In this document: positions 1 through 11,560 of the stretch, in pieces
Layout of the letters: the number at the start of each line of letters is the position of its first letter
Numbering within the stretch: position 1 is the stretch's first letter
Origin: Candidatus Babeliales bacterium
GTDB taxonomy: Bacteria > Babelota > Babeliae > Babelales > Vermiphilaceae
Reading direction: 5' to 3'
Assembly (NCBI GenBank): GCA_044451405.1
Contig: JBIOKB010000025.1
Coordinates: 1 to 12,544 of the forward strand
Length of the DNA stretch: 12,544 nucleotides
Notes under the pieces: generated by a model
Told to the model about the DNA's origin: nothing
The model's input: the letters and a program-made list of their open reading frames with translations, nothing else
Database searches by the model: none
Made by a program: the position numbers and the translations under genes

Positions 1-284
1 GTATGAGTTCTTGCGTGTCTGACCAAATGACTTTTATATGCAAAAACTTCGCCACATGTATCGCATACATGAGCTTTTTCTTTTTTGACGTTAGTTTTTT
101 TATCCCCATCAAATTTTCTTTTAATTCCTCTAGTTACTCTTACAGATTTCTGAGCAGTGGCTGCTTGGGTAGCAGAAGTATCAGATAAAGTAGGTAATTC
201 GCCAATGGCTTCTTCCATTGCACTACTCATGCTCGTTGCACAAATAAGAAGCAATAGGGTTAAATTGGTGAATGTTGTTTTCAT
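1..284 (-). CDS. Secreted C2H2 zinc-finger protein, paralog D (partial; runs off the window at base 1)
   Basis: Not in the ORF track; translated by hand from ATG at 284: MKTTFTNLTLLLLICATSMSSAMEEAIGELPTLSDTSATQAATAQKSVRVTRGIKRKFDGDKKTNVKKEKAHVCDTCGEVFAYKSHLVRHARTH... It has the same signal peptide as the other paralogs, a basic patch and one complete C-x2-C-x12-H-x3-H finger. Its ATG overlaps the TGA of 281..1435 (ATGA). Confidence 0.93.
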   Translation of the reverse strand, partial: MKTTFTNLTLLLLICATSMSSAMEEAIGELPTLSDTSATQAATAQKSVRVTRGIKRKFDGDKKTNVKKEKAHVCDTCGEVFAYKSHLVRHARTH

Positions 285-297
285 AGATTCCCGTCTT
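208..297. repeat. Dispersed direct repeat, copy 1 (EDGNL/stop-start junction plus signal-peptide coding block)
   Basis: gcttcttccatNgcNctactcatgc...ttcatagatt(t/c)ccgtc recurs at about 1359, 2417 and, without the junction, 3256. Confidence 0.85.
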
Positions 298-1435
298 CTC
301 TTGTTTTTTCGGGAGGTTTTACATGTGCATTACCCGCATCAGGCATAGATAATGATTCGCCACCACGTGGGTAAGATATTGCTGGTGCTACTGCTTGCTC
401 ACTAAGTTGTGTTTGTCCTCCGGCTTGTTCTACAGAGCCCTGTGCGAGGGAGGGCGCATGATAATGGGAATGAGAATGATAATGTGTATGCATAGGGGCT
501 GATGAAGCTAACAGCGCAAAGTATAATGAGATTGGTAAAGGAAATTGTGGCATTAGTGTTGCGGCTGCTGGAAAGTATGCATAAGTTGTATGAGCGCTTT
601 GTCCTGTTGTTTGTGCAAGAGAAACTGAGGCTGATGACTTAGGTATATGAGCTCTTCCTATATGGGCAGTTAAATTAGCTTTCTTCCCATAACCTGCACC
701 ACAGGTAGCGCATTTATAAATGCCGCTTTCTTCTGTATGAACTTTTGAATGTTTTTTTAACGAATGTGATTGTGTATATTTTTCTCCGCACCCGGGGTGG
801 ATGCATACGTAAGCTTGTTCTTTAGTATGAGTTTTTATGTGTTGAGTTAAACCGCATTTTTGTGCAAAATCTTTGCCACATTTAGTACACTTGAAGGGTC
901 TTTTTCCGGTATGAGTTCTTACGTGAATTTTCAAACTACCGTTACTTAGAAAATCTTTGCTACATCCAGGATGCTTACATTTGAAAGGTCTTTCTCCAGT
1001 GTGAGTTTTTATATGATATTTTAAGCCGTTTTTAGATGTAAAACCTTTGCCACATTGATCACATGAGTAGCTTTTTTCAGAATCTTTCGTGCTCTCCGTA
1101 GCTTGCCGAGCTTGATTGCCCGGATAAGCAGAGGAGAGTTCTTGTTCAGCTTTTCTTGCAGCAACAATTTTTCTTTTTTTGTAAATGGAGCTCTGTGTAG
1201 ATGTTTCTTCAGAGCGTTCAACATTTCTTTTTTTAGTTCCTATTTGTGCTTGGCTCACTGAGTCAGCTGCGGCAGATATGGGCGCTTGTGCGGCCAAAAT
1301 CATGGCAGTTGTTTGTGGGTTAGCAGGGGCAGTAGATAAAGCGAGTAAGCCTTCAATAGCTTCTTCCATCGCACTACTCATGCTCGTTGCACACAAAAAG
1401 AGTAATAGAGTGAAATTAGTGAATAATGTCTTCAT
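281..1435 (-). CDS. Secreted multi-C2H2 zinc-finger protein, paralog C (5 fingers)
   Basis: Signal peptide MKTLFTNFTLLLFLCATSMSSA; basic motifs TKKRN and YKKRKIV; five C2H2 fingers (about 647-1069) with linkers TGERP, TGKRP, TKEQA, TEESGI; Ala/Pro/His/Gln-rich tail ending EDGNL. Confidence 0.95.
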   Translation of the reverse strand: MKTLFTNFTLLLFLCATSMSSAMEEAIEGLLALSTAPANPQTTAMILAAQAPISAAADSVSQAQIGTKKRNVERSEETSTQSSIYKKRKIVAARKAEQELSSAYPGNQARQATESTKDSEKSYSCDQCGKGFTSKNGLKYHIKTHTGERPFKCKHPGCSKDFLSNGSLKIHVRTHTGKRPFKCTKCGKDFAQKCGLTQHIKTHTKEQAYVCIHPGCGEKYTQSHSLKKHSKVHTEESGIYKCATCGAGYGKKANLTAHIGRAHIPKSSASVSLAQTTGQSAHTTYAYFPAAATLMPQFPLPISLYFALLASSAPMHTHYHSHSHYHAPSLAQGSVEQAGGQTQLSEQAVAPAISYPRGGESLSMPDAGNAHVKPPEKTREDGNL

Positions 1436-1452
1436 AGATTTCCGTCCTCTGG
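1359..1452. repeat. Dispersed direct repeat, copy 2
   Basis: gcttcttccatcgcactactcatgctcgttgcaca...ttcatagatttccgtcctctgg. Confidence 0.85.
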
Positions 1453-2493
1453 AGTCAATGAAGGGCCAAAAAGTACGCTGTTAGAATCAGATTCTGGTAA
1501 AGCGAGCGGCCCAATCAATGGAGTGGCAAATTCCTCCTGAAACGTGTCTCGATTCTCATTAGACATGCTCAATGATAATCCACCAGAATAAGGGATTGGT
1601 AATGGCACCACTGGTAACAGGGCGCTTGATTGTGTTTGAAGATAATGGTCTGTATGCATAGAAGCCGCGGTTAGCGGTGGCGCTTGAGATTCTGATGGCA
1701 CACCTGAATCGCTGCTGCTATGGCTGTGTGTAGCAGGTTCTGGTGTGTGAACACAGTGTTCTGCTAGGGTTAATTTAATTTTTTTCTCGGCATGAGTTTT
1801 TTCGTGTCTGGTTAAATTATATTTAGCTTCAAAGTTTTTGCCGCATATGCTGCATTTGAAAGCTTTTTCGTTATGAATTTTCATATGTCGAATTAGACTA
1901 CTTTCATGGAAAAAATTTTTACCGCATGTTTCACATAAGTAAAGTTGTTTTTCAGTGAAAGACTTTTCTCCAGTATGTGCTCTTATGTGGGTGATCAAGG
2001 TAACTTTATCAGAAAATTTTTTATTGCATCCATAACAGGTGATAAACTTCTTTTTGATATGTGTTCTTATATGTTTAGTTAAAAGTTTTTTGTCTGTAAA
2101 TTCTTGCCCGCATTTTTCACAGGTTAGTTTTGTATGAGTTTTTATATGTTCGGTTAAAATACGTTTGTATGGAAAAGCTTTATCGCATCCAGGATGATCA
2201 CATTTGCAAGGTGTTTCTCCAGTGTGTCTTCTGAAATGGTCGGCCAAATGACTGCTTCTTGAAAAGTTTTTTCCACACTTAGAGCATATATGTTCGCTCG
2301 TGCCCCGTTTTCTTTTAGTTCCCTTTTTTACAGTGGGCGACTCTTGGCTTTCTGAACCAGCGCCAGCTTCGGCTTCGATAGTTGAAGTTGTGTGTGTAGG
2401 CACACTATTTTCAACGGCTTCTTCCATAGCGCTACTCATGCCTGCTGCACACAGAAGAAATAATAGGATGAGATTGGTTAATACTGTCTTCAT
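1432..2493 (-). CDS. Secreted multi-C2H2 zinc-finger protein, paralog B (6 fingers)
   Basis: Signal peptide MKTVLTNLILLFLLCAAGMSSA; basic patch KKGTKRKR; six C2H2 fingers (about 1792-2292), e.g. CSKCGKNFSRSSHLADHFRRH-TGETP; Ser/Pro/acidic tail ending PEDGNL. Confidence 0.95.
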   Translation of the reverse strand: MKTVLTNLILLFLLCAAGMSSAMEEAVENSVPTHTTSTIEAEAGAGSESQESPTVKKGTKRKRGTSEHICSKCGKNFSRSSHLADHFRRHTGETPCKCDHPGCDKAFPYKRILTEHIKTHTKLTCEKCGQEFTDKKLLTKHIRTHIKKKFITCYGCNKKFSDKVTLITHIRAHTGEKSFTEKQLYLCETCGKNFFHESSLIRHMKIHNEKAFKCSICGKNFEAKYNLTRHEKTHAEKKIKLTLAEHCVHTPEPATHSHSSSDSGVPSESQAPPLTAASMHTDHYLQTQSSALLPVVPLPIPYSGGLSLSMSNENRDTFQEEFATPLIGPLALPESDSNSVLFGPSLTPEDGNL

Positions 2494-2510
2494 AGATTTC
2501 CGTCTTCTGG
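2417..2510. repeat. Dispersed direct repeat, copy 3
   Basis: gcttcttccatagcgctactcatgcctgctgcaca...ttcatagatttccgtcttctgg. Confidence 0.85.
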
Positions 2511-3332
2511 ATTCGATGAAGCGCCAAAAAGTATACTGCTAAAATCAGGTTCTGGTAAAGTAAGCGGTGGTTCTGAAGGTGGCTCAGCTAATGGATTGCC
2601 AAATTCATCCTGATTAAACGTATTTCCATTCTCATTAGGCATGCTTAATGAGAATCCACCAGATAAATCAGCAGCTGGTGATGGTTCCACTGCTGGCGGT
2701 AGAGCAAGTGGTTGATAAGAATGGGAATGGGAATGATCTTCTAAAGTAGCTGGTGAAGGTGTGAATTGTGGCATCGGGCCTGCTGGAAGAAATGCATAAG
2801 GTGCATGAGCAGCGGGCTCTGCCGCTTGCGCAGCTAAAGATGGAGTAGGAGTTGTTTGGTTAGGGTTATGAACTCTGCTTATATGCTGAGTTAGTGCTCC
2901 TTGTTTTTTATAACCTATGCCACATATTGTGCATGTGTAACGCCGTTTTCCTGTATGAGCTTTTAAGTGTCTTTGTAAATCACGTGGGTCTGCGTAGCTC
3001 TCGTTACATTGAGCATAGGTACATTTGTATGGTCTTTCTCCAGCATGAGTTCTTTGGTGTCTGGTTAAATGTGCTTTATCGATAAAAGATTTGCCACATC
3101 TAGAAAAAGTACATTTATAAGGTTTATTTTTTTCAGAAGATCTTTTTCTTTTTCGCTCTTTTTTTATAGTGTGTGTTTCACTACCCGCACCGGCTCCGGC
3201 AGATACAGCTAGTTGGGTAGCAGGAGTATCTGATGAAACAAGTAAGCCATTAGAAGCTTCTTCCATAGCGCTACTCATGCTCGTTGCACACAAGAGAAAT
3301 AATAGAGTTAAATTGATTACTCGTGTTTTCAT
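2490..3332 (-). CDS. Secreted multi-C2H2 zinc-finger protein, paralog A (3 fingers; first gene of the operon)
   Basis: Signal peptide MKTRVINLTLLFLLCATSMSSA; basic patch KKERKRKR; three C2H2 fingers (about 2868-3119) with AGERP and TGKRR linkers; Pro/Ala/acidic tail ending PEDGNL; SD-like GAGGGG at 3345-3340. Confidence 0.95.
   Translation of the reverse strand: MKTRVINLTLLFLLCATSMSSAMEEASNGLLVSSDTPATQLAVSAGAGAGSETHTIKKERKRKRSSEKNKPYKCTFSRCGKSFIDKAHLTRHQRTHAGERPYKCTYAQCNESYADPRDLQRHLKAHTGKRRYTCTICGIGYKKQGALTQHISRVHNPNQTTPTPSLAAQAAEPAAHAPYAFLPAGPMPQFTPSPATLEDHSHSHSYQPLALPPAVEPSPAADLSGGFSLSMPNENGNTFNQDEFGNPLAEPPSEPPLTLPEPDFSSILFGASSNPEDGNL
3256..3332. repeat. Dispersed direct repeat, copy 4 (signal-peptide block only)
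   Basis: gcttcttccatagcgctactcatgctcgttgcaca...ttttcat. Confidence 0.85.
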
Positions 3333-3401
3333 ATATTTACCCCTCTTTTTCTGAGGCTTTTATACCTTAAATTTCTTGACTATTGTTTTATTCTATTAGA
3401 A

Positions 3402-3429
3402 ATATTATCAAATATACACCAATTGTCAA
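3402..3429 (-). promoter_or_regulatory. Putative sigma70-type promoter of the zinc-finger operon
   Basis: The minus strand reads TTGACA (3429-3424), a 16-nt spacer ending in TGn, then TAATAT (3407-3402), about 70 nt upstream of the ATG at 3332. Confidence 0.65.
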
Positions 3430-3486
3430 AGGGGTTATTTTATATCCCAATAGTTTATACATTCGTATGGGAAAAGAAATGTCTTG

Positions 3487-3502
3487 CCCTGAGTTCTCAG
3501 GG
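3487..3502. promoter_or_regulatory. Inverted repeat (possible operator or hairpin) in the divergent intergenic region
   Basis: CCCTGAG-TT-CTCAGGG, with overlapping outer arms CTTGCC (3483-3488) and GGCAAG (3506-3511). Confidence 0.35.
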
Positions 3503-3539
3503 AATGGCAAGGTAGGGGGTAGATTGGGTAGGAGAGTCT

Positions 3540-4037
3540 ATGAGGAATAGCGGGTATACACTGGTTGAACTGGTCATTGTTATGTGCTTACTTATGCTGC
3601 TTATAGGGATCACCGTAGGCAATAGAGGTACTTCTAAGATAGGTGCCTGTTCTGCAGTATATACCCTGCACAGTGTTTGTAATTATATGCACATGCGTGC
3701 TCGTGCAACGAACCAAACCCACATACTTAGTTTTGATATAGAGCATAATACCTACTGTTATAATGGCATGCGTGAGCAGTTGCCATCAGGAGTAGTGTTC
3801 GGCGTTCTTGATAGAGCATGCGGGCCCCCTTCATCACCAGTGCGCCCTATAACGCATCCCATTACGGCTGAAAATCAATGTATAACTTTTACGCCCCATG
3901 GTATTATACAGCCTGGTGCAATCTATATAAAAACAACTGATAATAGCTGTATGTATGCGTTAAGTGTGTCAGTTGCACAAGCATCGTTTGTACGGATGTA
4001 TGAGTATCGTCATGGAACATGGATTTTATTAACATAA
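3540..4037 (+). CDS. Prepilin-type N-terminal cleavage/methylation domain protein (FimT/GspH-like minor pilin or pseudopilin)
   Basis: Class III signal MRNSG|YTLVEL followed by a hydrophobic helix; ITFTPHG resembles the C-terminal motif of GspH/FimT; SD AGGAG at 3530-3534. Confidence 0.8.
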   Translation: MRNSGYTLVELVIVMCLLMLLIGITVGNRGTSKIGACSAVYTLHSVCNYMHMRARATNQTHILSFDIEHNTYCYNGMREQLPSGVVFGVLDRACGPPSSPVRPITHPITAENQCITFTPHGIIQPGAIYIKTTDNSCMYALSVSVAQASFVRMYEYRHGTWILLT

Positions 4038-4047
4038 GAAGCTAATC

Positions 4048-6768
4048 ATGATAGTGCGCTCTGCCAGTATTGGATTATTAATTGGATCTCTCATAACACT
4101 GGTGTGCATGCAGTATGATCCATGGGTTAAACAGCGTGTAGGAAAAGCATTTAAAGAGCTGTTTGAAACATCCATTGGATGCCGTATGCACTGCAGTGTG
4201 CAGTCGTTGCATTTGTGGCAACCGGCATTAGTGTTGCAGGATGTTCGCGTAACACCGCGTGATGAACAGGCACCATGGTACTGGACAGCCAAGCGCCTTA
4301 TTGTTTCATGTAACTGGTGGCATGTGTGCTGTTATGGCATTATTGATTTACATGTAGTGTTGGAAGATAGTCATACCTATAGTTCAGTTTCTCATGGCGT
4401 GTTAGCAATTAATGATCATGTTAATACCTTGTTTTTCGGCTCTTCTTCTTCAATTCCGTTATTTACTAAATCAGTGATCTATAAACGAGCGCACCTGCAT
4501 CTTGCTGATACTGATTCAGCAACTGATATGCATGTTACGTGGAATAGTGAATCAAAAAAAATCGATAATCATTTTAAATCTACTCTATATTGTATTGATG
4601 GTTCTTTAGCAGATAAAAATAAAACCTATGTTAGCGATATGCAGGGATCCGTATATCTTGATATGATCTTTGCCAATCAGCAGGTAGAACATAGTATGCG
4701 TGCTGATTGCTCAGTACGTCTTGCCTGTTTACCTCCTGCTCATCAAGAATGCCATATTGATGCAGAGTGGTATGGCAATCAGGGAACGCTACATATTGCC
4801 AATGATGATCATTCACTCCATATTACACCGGTTGCCATTTCCTCTGATAATAACGAATATACTGCCCATATGCAGGGTACCATTCCTCTTAATGTGCTTG
4901 CGTATTACGGGTTTGCGCATCAACATGACGCGTGTGCTGGTACGTGCAGTGTTGCTCTGCACGTAAAAAAAGATGCACATGGTGTTACTGCAGATGGAAC
5001 AGGTACGGTTGATGACGGTGCGTATCATAAAACATCATTAGGTGCCATTACGATGACTGGTAGTGGAGAGCGTGATGCATGGCATGGTTCACTTACTTGG
5101 ATGCCAACGCAGGATGTGCGTGTTGAAGGCGCGTGGCAGTGGCAGCAAGGGCGTGCGCAGATAGAATGTATGTTGCGTGGTGAAACACCGATTTCTATCA
5201 TGAATCAGTGGTATGTACAACCAGGAAGCACCGGATGTACTATCGCCTATGATCATACGGGAATAACCGGATCCTACCACAGTACTCTTCATAACACATA
5301 TCAGGATACAACAGTACAGCTCAACGGACATGGTACGTATAGTGATGGGATAGGAACATGGCATGGTACGGTGAATGATTGTGCCCATGTTGGCTCTCTT
5401 GCATGCACTGATACGGGATATGAAGGATCACTACGGTATAACGATGATAAACAGGCGATAGCTACTTTTGCGCTGCATAACACACAACTTTCAGGGTCTA
5501 TTCATATTCCATGGATTAAAGATATTGTTGTAGCACTGTATGGAGGCGATATACAGGGTGATGGCTCTGTGCGGTGGGATGTAGCAGATTATCAACACAC
5601 TCCATTAACCATAACGTGTACCCTTGATGGTACGCTGCGTATTCCACAAACATATAATGCTATTAATGAAGCACAGGGAATTATAGAGTGGGATTATAAC
5701 GCACGCACGATGCGTATGAAAAACGTGCAGGGTACGTTGTATAAAGGTTCCTTTGCCTGTCATCAAGCAACAGTATTCTATGATGATACGTGGCATCCTT
5801 TTTTTATACAGGCGCCCTGTATTTTTAATGACTGTTTATTAAATGTAAAAAAAGATTTATTTGCGCTTATGTCTGGCCATATGACGTACACGTATCAGGA
5901 TGCGCAAGCCCGTTTAACAGGACTTCTTACTATTGATCATTCACAACTAAAAGAAAATATTTTTTCTGAAGCATTTGCCAATCGTTTTTTACATGCTACT
6001 GGTATGATGATTCCGGTACGGGATAATTCCCTTATGTGTGATGTAACGATAAAAACAAAAGTTCCTACGCACATAAAAACGGCCTTTCTGGATACAACAG
6101 CTGCCATTGATCTTCATGTGACTCATTCACTCGCTTGTCCAGAAGTAGCAGGCACACTATCAATCGGGTCAGGACAATTATCATTTCCCTACAAGCCATT
6201 GTATATTACCCAGGGCTCTTTGTATTGTGTGCCCGGCCGTTTATATGATCCTCTTATTGAATTTACGGCAAAAAACAGTATTAAAAATCATACGATATCT
6301 CTGCATGTTACTGGTTCTCTTTCAAAACCGCATGTGACGCTTGAATCATGGCCGCCCTTAACGCAAGAACAAATTGTTTCGTTATTGTTGGTAGGTTCAT
6401 ATCAAGAATCATTGAATATGGTTATGCCTGCGTTGGTTATGAATAACATCACATCACTGTTATTTGGCGAGAATCACACAACGCATACATCAACGAATAA
6501 ATTCGTATCATTATTAGAGCCATTTAAACGCATCAGGCTGGTGCCTAGTTTTACTGATCAAACAGGCCGTGGCGGGCTACGTGGTGCTATTGAAGTGGAT
6601 GTAAGTGATCGCGTGCACGCAGTTATTCAAAAGAACTTTAGCTTAACGGAAGATACCTATTTTGAATTAGGGTATCTGTTATCAGATGATATTAATGTCC
6701 GCTTGCTGCGTGATGAGCGGCGTGATATGGGGGCAGAAGTTGAAATGCGGTGGAAGTTTGGGAGTTAG
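4048..6768 (+). CDS. tamB: TamB/AsmA-like translocation and assembly module protein (C-terminal DUF490-like domain)
   Basis: N-terminal membrane anchor, long beta-rich body, and C-terminal motifs VTGSLSKPHVTLESWPPLTQEQIVSLLLVG and GAEVEMRWKF typical of TamB/DUF490. Confidence 0.75.
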   Translation: MIVRSASIGLLIGSLITLVCMQYDPWVKQRVGKAFKELFETSIGCRMHCSVQSLHLWQPALVLQDVRVTPRDEQAPWYWTAKRLIVSCNWWHVCCYGIIDLHVVLEDSHTYSSVSHGVLAINDHVNTLFFGSSSSIPLFTKSVIYKRAHLHLADTDSATDMHVTWNSESKKIDNHFKSTLYCIDGSLADKNKTYVSDMQGSVYLDMIFANQQVEHSMRADCSVRLACLPPAHQECHIDAEWYGNQGTLHIANDDHSLHITPVAISSDNNEYTAHMQGTIPLNVLAYYGFAHQHDACAGTCSVALHVKKDAHGVTADGTGTVDDGAYHKTSLGAITMTGSGERDAWHGSLTWMPTQDVRVEGAWQWQQGRAQIECMLRGETPISIMNQWYVQPGSTGCTIAYDHTGITGSYHSTLHNTYQDTTVQLNGHGTYSDGIGTWHGTVNDCAHVGSLACTDTGYEGSLRYNDDKQAIATFALHNTQLSGSIHIPWIKDIVVALYGGDIQGDGSVRWDVADYQHTPLTITCTLDGTLRIPQTYNAINEAQGIIEWDYNARTMRMKNVQGTLYKGSFACHQATVFYDDTWHPFFIQAPCIFNDCLLNVKKDLFALMSGHMTYTYQDAQARLTGLLTIDHSQLKENIFSEAFANRFLHATGMMIPVRDNSLMCDVTIKTKVPTHIKTAFLDTTAAIDLHVTHSLACPEVAGTLSIGSGQLSFPYKPLYITQGSLYCVPGRLYDPLIEFTAKNSIKNHTISLHVTGSLSKPHVTLESWPPLTQEQIVSLLLVGSYQESLNMVMPALVMNNITSLLFGENHTTHTSTNKFVSLLEPFKRIRLVPSFTDQTGRGGLRGAIEVDVSDRVHAVIQKNFSLTEDTYFELGYLLSDDINVRLLRDERRDMGAEVEMRWKFGS

Positions 6769-6846: not shown

Positions 6847-7599
6847 GTGAAGCATACCCTTTCATATTCCCACGCTCATGGTGCAGTACTAATTTTTAGT
6901 CTACTTTTTTTAAGCATCTGTTTTTTTGATGGCACATGGTTGAGCAATGCGTACAATACCTATCTGCAACCGCATACAACAGCAGTTAATAAAACCCATG
7001 TTGTTATTGGTGCACCTAACAAACAATCATCAGTTGATAAACCAGCGCCGAGTGTATTGCCAGCTCACGCCTATTCACGGGTGCTTTTTTCTCCCGATGA
7101 TGACATCGCACAAGAATTGATTACCTTAATTAATCAAGAAAAAAAGAGTATTCGTGTTGCTATATTCACGTTTACTGATAGTAGGATTGCTCAAGCGCTT
7201 ATTGATGCAGCGCAGCGCAAGGTTGCTGTGGAAGTGATAGCAGATACGTCATATTTACGGGATCAGTACAGTAAAATTCCCGTGTTGCAACAGCATAACA
7301 TAGCAATTTTTACCTATAATCCTCATTACAAAGGCGTACGAACTCATAAAAAAAGAGAATACCTTGGTATCATGCATCATAAATTTATGGTTTTTGAACA
7401 GAACAAAAACAATGAAGAGATAGTTGTTTTTGGTTCATATAATCTTACGCGGTCTGCTAATTTATATAATCAAGAAAATGTAGTGATATCGAATAATCAG
7501 GAAATAATTAAACCATTCGAGCGTCAATTTGAACGACTTAAAAAGCGATGTGACAATTGTTTTGAAGAGTTACCTCAAGGACGTACAGCTATCGCATAA
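6847..7599 (+). CDS. Phospholipase D/Nuc-family protein (single HKD-type motif), N-terminal membrane anchor
   Basis: FSPDD...LINQEKKSIRVAIFTFT...IAQALIDAAQRKVAVEVIAD, MHHKFMVFE, GSYNLT and NQEN form the motif set of Nuc/MitoPLD-like PLD proteins. Confidence 0.88.
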   Translation: MKHTLSYSHAHGAVLIFSLLFLSICFFDGTWLSNAYNTYLQPHTTAVNKTHVVIGAPNKQSSVDKPAPSVLPAHAYSRVLFSPDDDIAQELITLINQEKKSIRVAIFTFTDSRIAQALIDAAQRKVAVEVIADTSYLRDQYSKIPVLQQHNIAIFTYNPHYKGVRTHKKREYLGIMHHKFMVFEQNKNNEEIVVFGSYNLTRSANLYNQENVVISNNQEIIKPFERQFERLKKRCDNCFEELPQGRTAIA

Positions 7600-10471: not shown

Positions 10472-11560
10472 ATGGATAGTTTCTCTAGGATACTCTATTT
10501 TTCATCGCTTTTAGTTTGTATGACTTTATCTGCCAATGAAACAGCTGATACAGCTCTTTTTGATGCTATTAATACATCTGATTTAGAAGGGGTAAAAGAA
10601 GCATTTAGGAACGGTGCCTCTACTGATGCTAAAGACAAAAATCAATGGAATCCATTTGCAAAAGCACTATTTCGTTATGGCATGTCTAAAGTAGGAAAAA
10701 AGATCAATAAAAATAAAGTTGACGCTAACAAGGCTGTTGTTTACGAGATTTATAATCATATGGAAACAGTTAACCCTGATGATTTTATAACAGCAGCATC
10801 CTTGGGCGGTTTAAGTGATCTAGTAGAAAAAATGATCAATGACGGCATGTCGGTTGATGTAAGAGGCACTCTTGGTCGAACAGCATTGATGACGTTGGTA
10901 CATGGGTATCCTGATTTAGACGATGTAAAATTCCTGGTGGCAAAAGGCGCTGATGTTAATGCAATAGATAAAAGAAAATCTGTACTGGCTGGAGGAAAGA
11001 CTATAGAGAGCAATGTTCTTGATTATGCACTTTCACCGGGAACCTCAGAAGCCTTAAGGGCAGCGATCTATTTGATTGATAAAGGTGCTCGGGTTACGCC
11101 ACAGCACTTTGTTCGTGCTGCCGGTAACCACAATTTTAATCTTGAGTTGGTAAAAAAGATTGATGCAAAAATAAGAAACGTTGATGCTGTTGATAATTCA
11201 GGTTTGACTGCTTTGCGCAAAGCTATCGAGTTTGGAGGAAGCAGTGAAGGCATCAATTACTTATTAGATAAAAAAGCTAATGTAAATGCCATGGTGCAGG
11301 GCGATCCGGATTCAATATTATTTACCGCAATTTTTCAATATTATTACTATAACAATATTGGTCTTACAATCATTGAGAAAATATTGAAAAACGGTGCTCA
11401 GGTTGATGACATGGCTATGGCCCTTGCTCAGGGCGACTTTCCAAAACTTATTAACTTGCTTGGTGCAGAAGAGGGTGCTGTATATGTTAATTATAAACAG
11501 CCAGATCCAGTAAAAAAAGAGCAGGTTTTGAAGTTATTACAAAAGTATAGCCAACAATAA
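10472..11560 (+). CDS. Secreted ankyrin-repeat protein
   Basis: Signal peptide MDSFSRILYFSSLLVCMTLSA; ankyrin motifs GRTALM...VKFLVAKGADVNAID, GLTALRKA...YLLDKKANVNA, ILKNGAQVD; SD-like GGGGG upstream; TATAAT at 10424-10429. Confidence 0.88.
   Translation: MDSFSRILYFSSLLVCMTLSANETADTALFDAINTSDLEGVKEAFRNGASTDAKDKNQWNPFAKALFRYGMSKVGKKINKNKVDANKAVVYEIYNHMETVNPDDFITAASLGGLSDLVEKMINDGMSVDVRGTLGRTALMTLVHGYPDLDDVKFLVAKGADVNAIDKRKSVLAGGKTIESNVLDYALSPGTSEALRAAIYLIDKGARVTPQHFVRAAGNHNFNLELVKKIDAKIRNVDAVDNSGLTALRKAIEFGGSSEGINYLLDKKANVNAMVQGDPDSILFTAIFQYYYYNNIGLTIIEKILKNGAQVDDMAMALAQGDFPKLINLLGAEEGAVYVNYKQPDPVKKEQVLKLLQKYSQQ

Follow-up and report, generated by a model that had tools for sequence, protein, structure and literature searches.

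Transcription activator-like (TAL) effectors of Xanthomonas and Ralstonia act in plant hosts after type III secretion and combine an export signal, a tandem DNA-reading array, a nuclear localization signal (NLS) and an acidic C-terminal region; the array is built from 33–35-residue repeats with repeat-variable diresidues (RVDs), and the paralog families diversify. Ros/MucR proteins carry a single, structurally distinct Cys2His2 (C2H2)-type finger, are cytoplasmic and bind DNA to regulate the bacterium's own genes. Here we describe an array of five tandem genes, Z1 to Z5, encoding classical C2H2 zinc-finger proteins with signal-like N-termini in a Candidatus Babeliales bacterium. Z1, Z2, Z3 and the 5′ part of Z4 lie in a stretch of 12,544 nucleotides (the window; positions 1 to 12,544 of contig JBIOKB010000025.1, assembly GCA_044451405.1), which is the whole of contig C25 in a 1,023,543-base, 89-contig genome (95.7% complete, 0.3% contaminated). 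The five tandem genes most likely form a family of effectors directed at the host, in a Dependentiae (Babeliales) bacterium that parasitizes protists. We infer that the proteins are exported through Sec and the type II secretion system (T2SS), enter the host nucleus and bind DNA there, and we assign this reading, in which export, import and binding are each deduced from sequence, a probability of about 0.5.

Proteins with related activities have been described in other pathogens. The accessible sections of two sources present Anaplasma AnkA and Ehrlichia TRP32, TRP47 and TRP120 as nucleomodulins that enter the host nucleus and bind host DNA; zinc fingers appear in those sections as host proteins or as a MYND-binding domain, with no bacterial C2H2 effector among them (PMC7232420, PMC7819608). 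In Magnaporthe oryzae, MoHTR1 and MoHTR2 contain a signal peptide, an NLS and a C2H2 finger, and are described in the available text as being secreted, entering rice nuclei and reprogramming transcription (PMC12488382). Signal peptides are carried by 44% of the coding sequences of Chromulinavorax destructans and by 78% of its ankyrin proteins, which are read as secreted effectors in the available part of PMC6561590; zinc is mentioned there only as a transported metal. Literature searches on zinc finger or C2H2 in Dependentiae, TM6, Babeliales, Babelota, Babela, Vermiphilus and Chromulinavorax returned nothing relevant, and no published description of exported bacterial C2H2 arrays was found; zf-C2H2 genes may be listed in the supplementary orthologue and domain tables of PMC4776705 and PMC6561590. 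The domain call itself is already in databases, as NCBI labels a relative's protein 'C2H2-type zinc finger protein [Candidatus Dependentiae bacterium]'.

The window genes of the array are all on the minus strand: Z1 at 2490–3332, Z2 at 1432–2493, Z3 at 281–1435 and the 5′ part of Z4 at 1–284 (open reading frame (ORF) 3–284, open at the contig end, with 94 codons in the window). Consecutive genes share four bases in ATGA stop/start overlaps at 2490–2493 (Z1/Z2), 1432–1435 (Z2/Z3) and 281–284 (Z3/Z4). ORF coordinates and the sequence itself agree on these sites, in keeping with the tandem, ATGA-coupled genes, at least four in number, proposed by an earlier, sequence-only reading of this DNA. The start of the window, taken as its reverse complement, equals the start of contig C68 over 141 exact bases, and joining the two contigs completes Z4 (234 amino acids, two fingers). 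C68 also holds Z5 (221 amino acids, three fingers; Pfam zf-C2H2 E 5.8e-12, 45.8 bits), which has an ATGA overlap with Z4 and is followed by a convergent gene for a GspE-type ATPase (T2SSE, E 5e-142).

The encoded proteins are laid out in the same order of parts. Z1 (280 amino acids) has a signal-like segment (residues 1–22), a basic patch (57–64), three C2H2 fingers (74–155) and an acidic, Pro-rich tail (156–280) that ends in EDGNL. Z2 (353 amino acids) has a signal-like segment at 1–22, a basic patch at 56–63, six fingers at 70–234 and a tail at 235–353, and Z3 (384 amino acids) has the corresponding parts at 1–22, 86–95, 125–263 (five fingers) and 264–384; both tails end in EDGNL. The window part of Z4 encodes a signal-like segment (1–22), a bipartite-looking basic patch (52–70) and the first finger (74–94).

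The repeat unit of the array is a zinc finger of 28–30 residues. Finger-coding segments, located by motif (C-x2-4-C-x12-H-x3-5-H) and by Pfam, lie on the minus strand at 2868–3113 (Z1), 1792–2286 (Z2), 647–1063 (Z3) and 3–65 (Z4). The zf-C2H2 E-values are 1.8e-15, 7.1e-30, 1.6e-20 and, for the Z4 fragment, 5.1e-06, with scores of 56.8, 102.2, 72.7 and 27.1 bits against a PF00096 gathering cut-off of 25.2. Regular-expression counts agree with the 3, 6, 5 and at least 1 fingers originally read in Z1 to Z4. Zinc ligands are complete in 19/19 fingers of the five proteins; an aromatic residue occupies X4 in 19/19 and Leu occupies X10 in 18/19. By domain the fingers belong to the classical eukaryote-type C2H2 family. 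ROS_MUCR was absent from the Pfam families at E <=0.01 for the four window proteins, and the distinction from Ros/MucR-type proteins drawn by the sequence-only reading is upheld, each protein having two to six classical fingers. No KRAB, BTB, SCAN or SET partner domain is present among the Pfam matches of the window proteins. The array accounts for every zf-C2H2 match of the genome: C25 has 11 and C68 has 3, a total in which one finger appears twice because of the contig overlap. In Z5, the second finger (residues 93–121; C68 835–921, plus strand) has an unusual C-x1-C spacing, and the 29-residue linker after it contains five further cysteines that may form an additional, non-classical zinc site.

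Relatives of these proteins from other Dependentiae provide a larger sample of fingers. TGEKP follows 115 and TGERP follows 27 of the 391 fingers in relatives. When the 12 inner positions are ranked by entropy, helix +3, +6 and -1 come out as the three most variable. These are the canonical base-contact positions. Linkers and variability together form the pattern expected of DNA-reading arrays, an indirect indication at the level of sequence that the relatives' arrays would read DNA. An AlphaFold model of Z2, made from a 7-row alignment (mean predicted local distance difference test (pLDDT) score 63), contains a helix at residues 2–23 and six beta-beta-alpha units with pLDDT ∼85–92, and is disordered at 23–64 and 246–353 (pLDDT <50). 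A Foldseek comparison of the model with the PDB returned 141 chains at E <=0.001, led by DNA-bound poly-finger proteins; the best matches are PRDM9, ZFP568, Aart, CTCF, ZBTB24, TFIIIA and WT1 in DNA-bound form (E ∼1e-11 to 1e-7, 25–44% identity).

All five proteins begin with MKT and an uncharged hydrophobic stretch, followed by a polar end SSA and then MEE. The segments encoding this signal-peptide-like region lie on the minus strand at 3267–3332 (Z1), 2428–2493 (Z2), 1370–1435 (Z3) and 219–284 (Z4). The hydrophobic core is short, with ∼10–15 uncharged residues, and gives way to a polar stretch of small residues. N-termini were scored by a home-made rule, set without calibration against proteins of known location, that asks for K/R near the start, then at least 10 uncharged residues with a mean hydropathy of at least 1.9; Z1 to Z5 pass it, 5/5. 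Among the 72 finger ORFs of relatives that are complete at the 5′ end, 54 pass when read from the first ATG and a further 10 when read from an in-frame Met downstream of it, and several of the remaining 8 begin hydrophobic by eye. Conservation among the five paralogs is highest in the first 27 residues (69% mean identity vs 35–44% elsewhere), and hydrophobic N-termini are kept in relatives whose sequences are otherwise unalignable. By this rule, the signal-peptide-like N-terminus that had been proposed for the window proteins is a family-wide trait of Dependentiae finger proteins.

A Met followed by Glu, Asp, Gln or Asn stands directly after the hydrophobic N-terminus in 5/5 proteins here and in 34/64 relatives' proteins (20/43 loci). 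In Z1 the Ala-Met pair is at codons 22–23 (window 3264–3269, minus strand); it has the same place in Z2 to Z5, and Met23 is invariant in the alignment. A Met after the signal as a genome-wide habit was considered and rejected: Met occurs there in 81/354 signal-like ORFs of this genome under a lax rule, and M[EDQN] in 32/286 other signal-like ORFs under a strict one. The junction could be left over from one ancestral signal-gene fusion, reflect a constraint on the cleavage site, mark an internal start or give a host-like, Met-acidic mature N-terminus. As a shared feature it suggests that an export signal was joined to a finger gene once, in ancient times, after which finger number and contact residues diversified; the array would be one such radiation, inserted into the T2SS operon. 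A lipoprotein assignment was rejected, as there is no lipobox (L-[AS]-[GA]-C): the Cys of the hydrophobic region is preceded by L-L or L-I, and Z5 has Ser instead. No other carrier of the signal or tail modules was found outside the array at E <1e-3 by tblastn in this genome.

A K/R patch resembling a classical NLS was located by motif in each window protein (minus strand; Z1 3141–3164, Z2 2305–2328, Z3 1151–1180, Z4 75–131). The pattern K[KR]x[KR] precedes the fingers in 5/5 proteins, 3–35 residues ahead of the first finger; the spacer that holds it is poorly conserved among the five. The pattern is present before the fingers in 30/72 relatives' proteins vs 28/341 control windows of the same length placed after the signals of other ORFs in this genome. 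The basic patch noted from sequence is therefore borne out here, and it is enriched in relatives over the controls.

The tails of Z1 to Z4 are rich in Pro, Ser, Ala and His and end in EDGNL; that of Z5 is shorter and lacks EDGNL. Composition and net charge (-14, -10 and -2 for Z1, Z2 and Z3) agree with the low-complexity Pro/Ser/His/acidic tails first read in the three complete genes. A search with the Z1 tail among 1.84 billion representatives retrieved only itself and Z2. The Z1 to Z3 tails (∼2493–2867, 1435–1791 and 284–646, minus strand) contain short His-Ser/His-Tyr runs of the HSHSH type and the shared blocks G-G-x-S-L-S-M and L-F-G-x-S, set in sequence that is disordered for the rest. 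EDGNL is found in exactly the four genes with a coupled gene downstream and is missing from the last gene, Z5. Its codons, at 2493–2507, 1435–1449 and 284–298 on the minus strand of the window and at ∼545–559 on C68, read GA[AG] GAC GG[AG] AA[TC] [CT]T followed by ATGA, and occupy the expected position of the ribosome-binding site of the next gene. A sorting motif is one candidate reading of EDGNL, but the ending may reflect coupling or a duplication unit, conserved at the nucleotide level, rather than a protein function.

The organism and its relatives define the setting of the array. An alignment search with MgtE gave 80 loci, of which the named ones at 52–67% identity are metagenome-assembled genomes labeled 'Candidatus Dependentiae', 'Candidatus Babeliales' and 'candidate division TM6'; Vermiphilus pyriformis is at 58%, and other phyla start at 30%. 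By these identities the organism is a member of the Babeliales in the Dependentiae (TM6, Babelota), a phylum of which it is a reduced bacterium. Homologs in Babelota, which the sequence-only reading had envisaged, exist: a survey with PF00096 at E <=1e-5 found zf-C2H2 matches in 46/261 Dependentiae genomes (35/189 of high quality) and 29/145 genera, including single-contig genomes, and several of the genomes hold tandem arrays of at least five finger genes. The same search gave 0/301 genomes in a control phylum (one that contains a record titled 'Proteobacteria bacterium') and 1/14 among reference genomes (Methanocaldococcus). Z2 and Z3 are singletons in the protein collection, and a locus search based on Z3 returned 50 pattern matches with no relatives among them. 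The best matches to Z2 outside the array are animal finger proteins with 30–43% identity, over the finger half only. These outside matches are assorted and single out no donor of the fingers.

The array sits between genes that are neighbors in relatives. The T2SS ATPase gene gspE, a pseudopilin-like gene and tamB are co-directional neighbors in 5/5 relatives examined, where the gap between gspE and the pseudopilin gene measures 14–23 nucleotides in three and ∼600 nucleotides in two. Here the five finger genes, in inverted orientation, fill exactly this gap. This placement gives independent support for the C25–C68 join and marks the array as an insertion into the type II secretion operon and not a part of it. 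In the window the pseudopilin-like gene (3540–4037, plus strand) is divergent from the array; its N_methyl match (E 5.2e-4) is below the gathering score, and it shares 31–39% identity with the syntenic gene in the 5 relatives. The TamB-like gene (4048–6768, plus strand; TamB E 3.5e-20) forms the conserved right flank of the insertion site. Pfam also confirms an RluD-type pseudouridine synthase and MgtE among the window genes, so that the tamB-like, rluD and mgtE neighbors named earlier all hold. The guanine-plus-cytosine (GC) content of the array genes is 0.374–0.416, compared with 0.405 ± 0.029 for the ORFs of the genome. Synteny, GC content and the occurrence of like genes in closed genomes of relatives establish that the array is native to this genome. 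A single DNA run, from a soil metagenome (0.08 of sampled words), was compared with positions 1–4200 and yielded three exact contigs of 151–153 bases inside Z2 and three partial pieces near 1096–1133; nothing in this run bridged 3332–3540 or the contig end.

Two of the relatives show further features at this site. In G009 (L148:7045–7640) the gap holds two paralogous ORFs of 92 and 101 amino acids without fingers, both with signal-like N-termini followed by Met and both ending in PKL; accessory genes for exported proteins may insert at this gap repeatedly. In G006 (L147, 1246–2963), the closest relative examined, gspE is split into three ORFs of 213, 90 and 215 amino acids, which may be a pseudogene or a sequencing error.

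The genome encodes a possible export route. Signal peptidase I is present on contig C29, and T2SS parts include two secretins, two GspF proteins, the GspE next to the array and the pseudopilin-like gene. A T2SS with two gspD genes is common to the TM6 genomes compared in the accessible part of PMC4776705. Markers of other export systems, namely FHIPEP (type III secretion system (T3SS) export gate), VirB4 (type IV), VipB (type VI) and the TolC family, were searched for and gave no match in this 95.7% complete genome; thus Sec plus T2SS is the only export route recognized, although the presence of a T2SS does not establish that the finger proteins use it. DsbA, Thioredoxin_4 and DsbB were likewise not found in the genome at this completeness, leaving no known disulfide-forming system to oxidize the finger cysteines.

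From these elements the following course of events can be proposed. The array would be transcribed from its own promoter-like site, and its genes would be translationally coupled through the ATGA overlaps. Each protein would be made with a Sec signal peptide and cross the inner membrane unfolded, and signal peptidase I would cut after SSA to leave a Met-Glu-Glu N-terminus. The T2SS, or alternatively vesicles, would carry it out of the bacterium. After arrival in the host cytoplasm, its import into the nucleus would be directed by the K/R patch just ahead of the fingers, acting as a classical import signal; the two to six classical fingers would then bind host DNA, and the disordered, acidic Pro/Ser tail may recruit host factors and so alter transcription.

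The established part of this picture comprises the structure of the genes, their domains and native setting, a signal-like N-terminus shared across the family, the enrichment of such proteins in the phylum and the presence of Sec and T2SS components. Its new part, a DNA-reading finger module in a nucleus-directed, eukaryote-like type of bacterial effector, is plausible as regards secretion and nuclear action. The nucleomodulin interpretation of the sequence-only reading accordingly stands for native, export-tagged proteins with eukaryote-type fingers and is plausible only for secretion and action in the nucleus. A number of observations weigh against the proposal of DNA-binding nuclear effectors. 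The signal rule discriminates weakly, flagging 344/938 ORFs of this genome (37%), and paralogs and related genomes are not independent, so that the signal p-values (3e-10) and the Fisher tests make the support look stronger than it is. The argument that an export signal is senseless for a regulator of the bacterium's own DNA is reasonable, but it is weakened because signals are very common in Dependentiae proteins, to judge from the 44% in the accessible part of the C. destructans study (PMC6561590). The basic patch is found in only 30 of the 72 relatives' proteins, and an activation role for the tail is argued from composition, the tail having no relatives outside the array. The linkers, many of which the first account described as TGE(K/R)P-like, resemble TGE[KR]P at 3/5 or more positions in 7/14 cases, with 2 strict matches; the other half do not. 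Several fingers of this genome have atypical contact residues (Y/I/E, S/G/S/I), and some fingers of the array may bind RNA or protein instead of DNA. A T2SS substrate would still have to pass the membrane of a host vacuole, if one exists. The proposed sigma-70-like promoter upstream of Z1 does match the consensus (3402–3429, minus strand; TTGACA, 16 nucleotides, TAATAT, with TG; 10/12 matches), but promoter-like sites are not enriched in 1–4100, with 9 found against 10.5 ± 3.3 in shuffled sequence, and the match is not statistically distinct from shuffles.

Other explanations place the proteins elsewhere or give them another target. They could be exported to the host and act outside the nucleus or not on DNA, with host RNA, host proteins or giant-virus DNA in cytoplasmic factories as targets. 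The degenerate half of the linkers and the atypical contact residues fit such a role, as does the absence of the basic patch from 42/72 relatives' proteins; RNA- and protein-binding C2H2 fingers are well established, and TFIIIA and a WT1–RNA complex are among the fold matches. The K[KR]x[KR] patch close ahead of the first finger in all five proteins, the dominance of canonical TGEKP linkers in relatives and the peak of variability at the base-contact positions speak for nuclear DNA binding, and we consider this explanation unlikely, if deserving of serious attention. It is improbable that the proteins stay in the bacterial envelope, held there by a hydrophobic N-terminus that remains uncleaved as an anchor or that acts to retain them in the periplasm. 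The Z2 model does have one continuous helix over residues 2–23, and cleavage of the signal is a prediction only; a short core with a polar stretch ending in SSA is nevertheless the anatomy of a signal peptide, not of a 20-residue membrane span, and it is not obvious what a tandem array of DNA-type fingers and its basic patch would do in the periplasm. Quite improbable, too, is translation from the internal Met23, by which the signal would not be made and the proteins would be cytoplasmic regulators of the bacterium itself. This would account for the Met right after the hydrophobic segment in 5/5 proteins here and for M[EDQN] in 34 of the 64 relatives' proteins. At each of the four junctions, however, the ATGA overlap with the preceding stop codon involves the first ATG. 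The 22 codons ahead of Met23 form an open, hydrophobic segment that is the best conserved among the paralogs, hydrophobic N-termini persist in otherwise unalignable relatives, and no strong Shine-Dalgarno motif was seen before Met23.

Two further explanations concern the origin of the sequence. The genes could be functionless leftovers of a transfer from a eukaryote that drift neutrally, in line with the patchy distribution over 46/261 genomes, the singleton status of Z2 and Z3 and outside matches that are best in animals, at 30–43% identity and in the fingers only. Five intact ORFs with all zinc ligands in 19/19 fingers and a GC content like that of the genome are hard to reconcile with drift; the genes are tightly coupled, a reduced genome of 1 Mb rarely keeps 4.4 kb of junk, and the same architecture recurs in 29 genera. 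The chance of this is as slim as that of the Met23 start. A chimeric assembly of eukaryotic DNA with a bacterial contig might be suspected from a short contig of a metagenome-assembled genome, one on which nothing from the single DNA run bridged 3332–3540. It is very unlikely, the least probable of all, as the array has no introns, ATGA coupling and a Shine-Dalgarno-like site (GAGGGG, 3340–3345, minus strand, 8–13 nucleotides before the Z1 start codon), its GC content (0.37–0.42) is that of the genome's ORFs, its flanks are the gspE and pseudopilin–tamB neighbors of 5/5 relatives, and genes of the same type lie inside single-contig Dependentiae genomes.

Some features of the window lie apart from this argument. 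An ankyrin-repeat protein with a signal-like N-terminus is encoded at 10472–11560 (plus strand; Ank_2, E 7.7e-15) and a PLD-like protein with an N-terminal hydrophobic stretch at 6847–7599 (plus strand; PLDc_2, E 1e-26); both are candidates for further exported host-interaction proteins. Four plus-strand ORFs at 157–348, 1185–1484, 2300–2542 and 3169–3354 (61–99 amino acids) have the common stretch SSIALLM...NRVKLV and are most likely antisense shadows of the signal and junction regions, not genes.

On a broader and more tentative view, to which we lend somewhat less credence than to nuclear action of the array proteins themselves, the array belongs to a phylum-wide, tandemly expanding family of Sec/T2SS-exported poly-C2H2 proteins that enter the protist nucleus and read host DNA, a natural bacterial counterpart of the TAL effectors. 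If the nucleus is reached, they would constitute, beside the TAL effectors, a second and independent class of modular DNA-reading effectors of bacteria, one that uses the zinc-finger code of eukaryotes. If true, the proposal would supply a concrete mechanism by which the poorly known Dependentiae reprogram protists, and nature would offer in these proteins a collection of compact finger arrays whose specificities can perhaps be predicted. With 46/261 genomes and 29 genera, vs 0/301 control-phylum genomes, the family occurs often enough to be of importance to the phylum's biology.

The array can be placed among known systems by its parts. With eukaryotic Kruppel-type C2H2 factors such as PRDM9, ZFP568, CTCF, ZBTB24 and TFIIIA it shares the motif, the aromatic residue and Leu, the beta-beta-alpha fold and, in about half of its linkers, the TGEKP type; these are the top fold matches, and identity over the arrays is 30–44%. 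Unlike those factors, it is bacterial and organized as a coupled operon, with a signal-like segment first, an orphan tail and no KRAB, BTB, SCAN or SET domain. Ros/MucR proteins and the array are both bacterial with a Cys2His2-type zinc site, but the array is multi-finger and classical. TAL effectors share only the layout, whereas the array has zinc fingers and a genome in which no T3SS marker was found; the earlier description as a zinc-finger analogue of TAL effectors is apt for the layout and does not extend to membership. AnkA and the TRP nucleomodulins resemble the array in the proposed role and, according to the accessible sections on them, carry repeats of the ankyrin or tandem acidic kind and are secreted by type I or type IV systems (PMC7232420, PMC7819608). 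The ankyrin proteins of C. destructans, as presented in the available part of PMC6561590, come from the same phylum and follow the same design, with a eukaryote-type domain placed behind a Sec signal and the families expanded; the array differs in that its domain is a DNA-type finger array. In the text available on them, MoHTR1 and MoHTR2 are the closest working precedent for the proposed mechanism, with the same signal–NLS–finger layout; the likeness is by layout alone, as they are fungal and use eukaryotic secretion, and MoHTR2 has 110 amino acids and one finger domain (PMC12488382). The array differs from both in its two to six fingers per protein, its five tandem genes and its proposed bacterial Sec/T2SS route.

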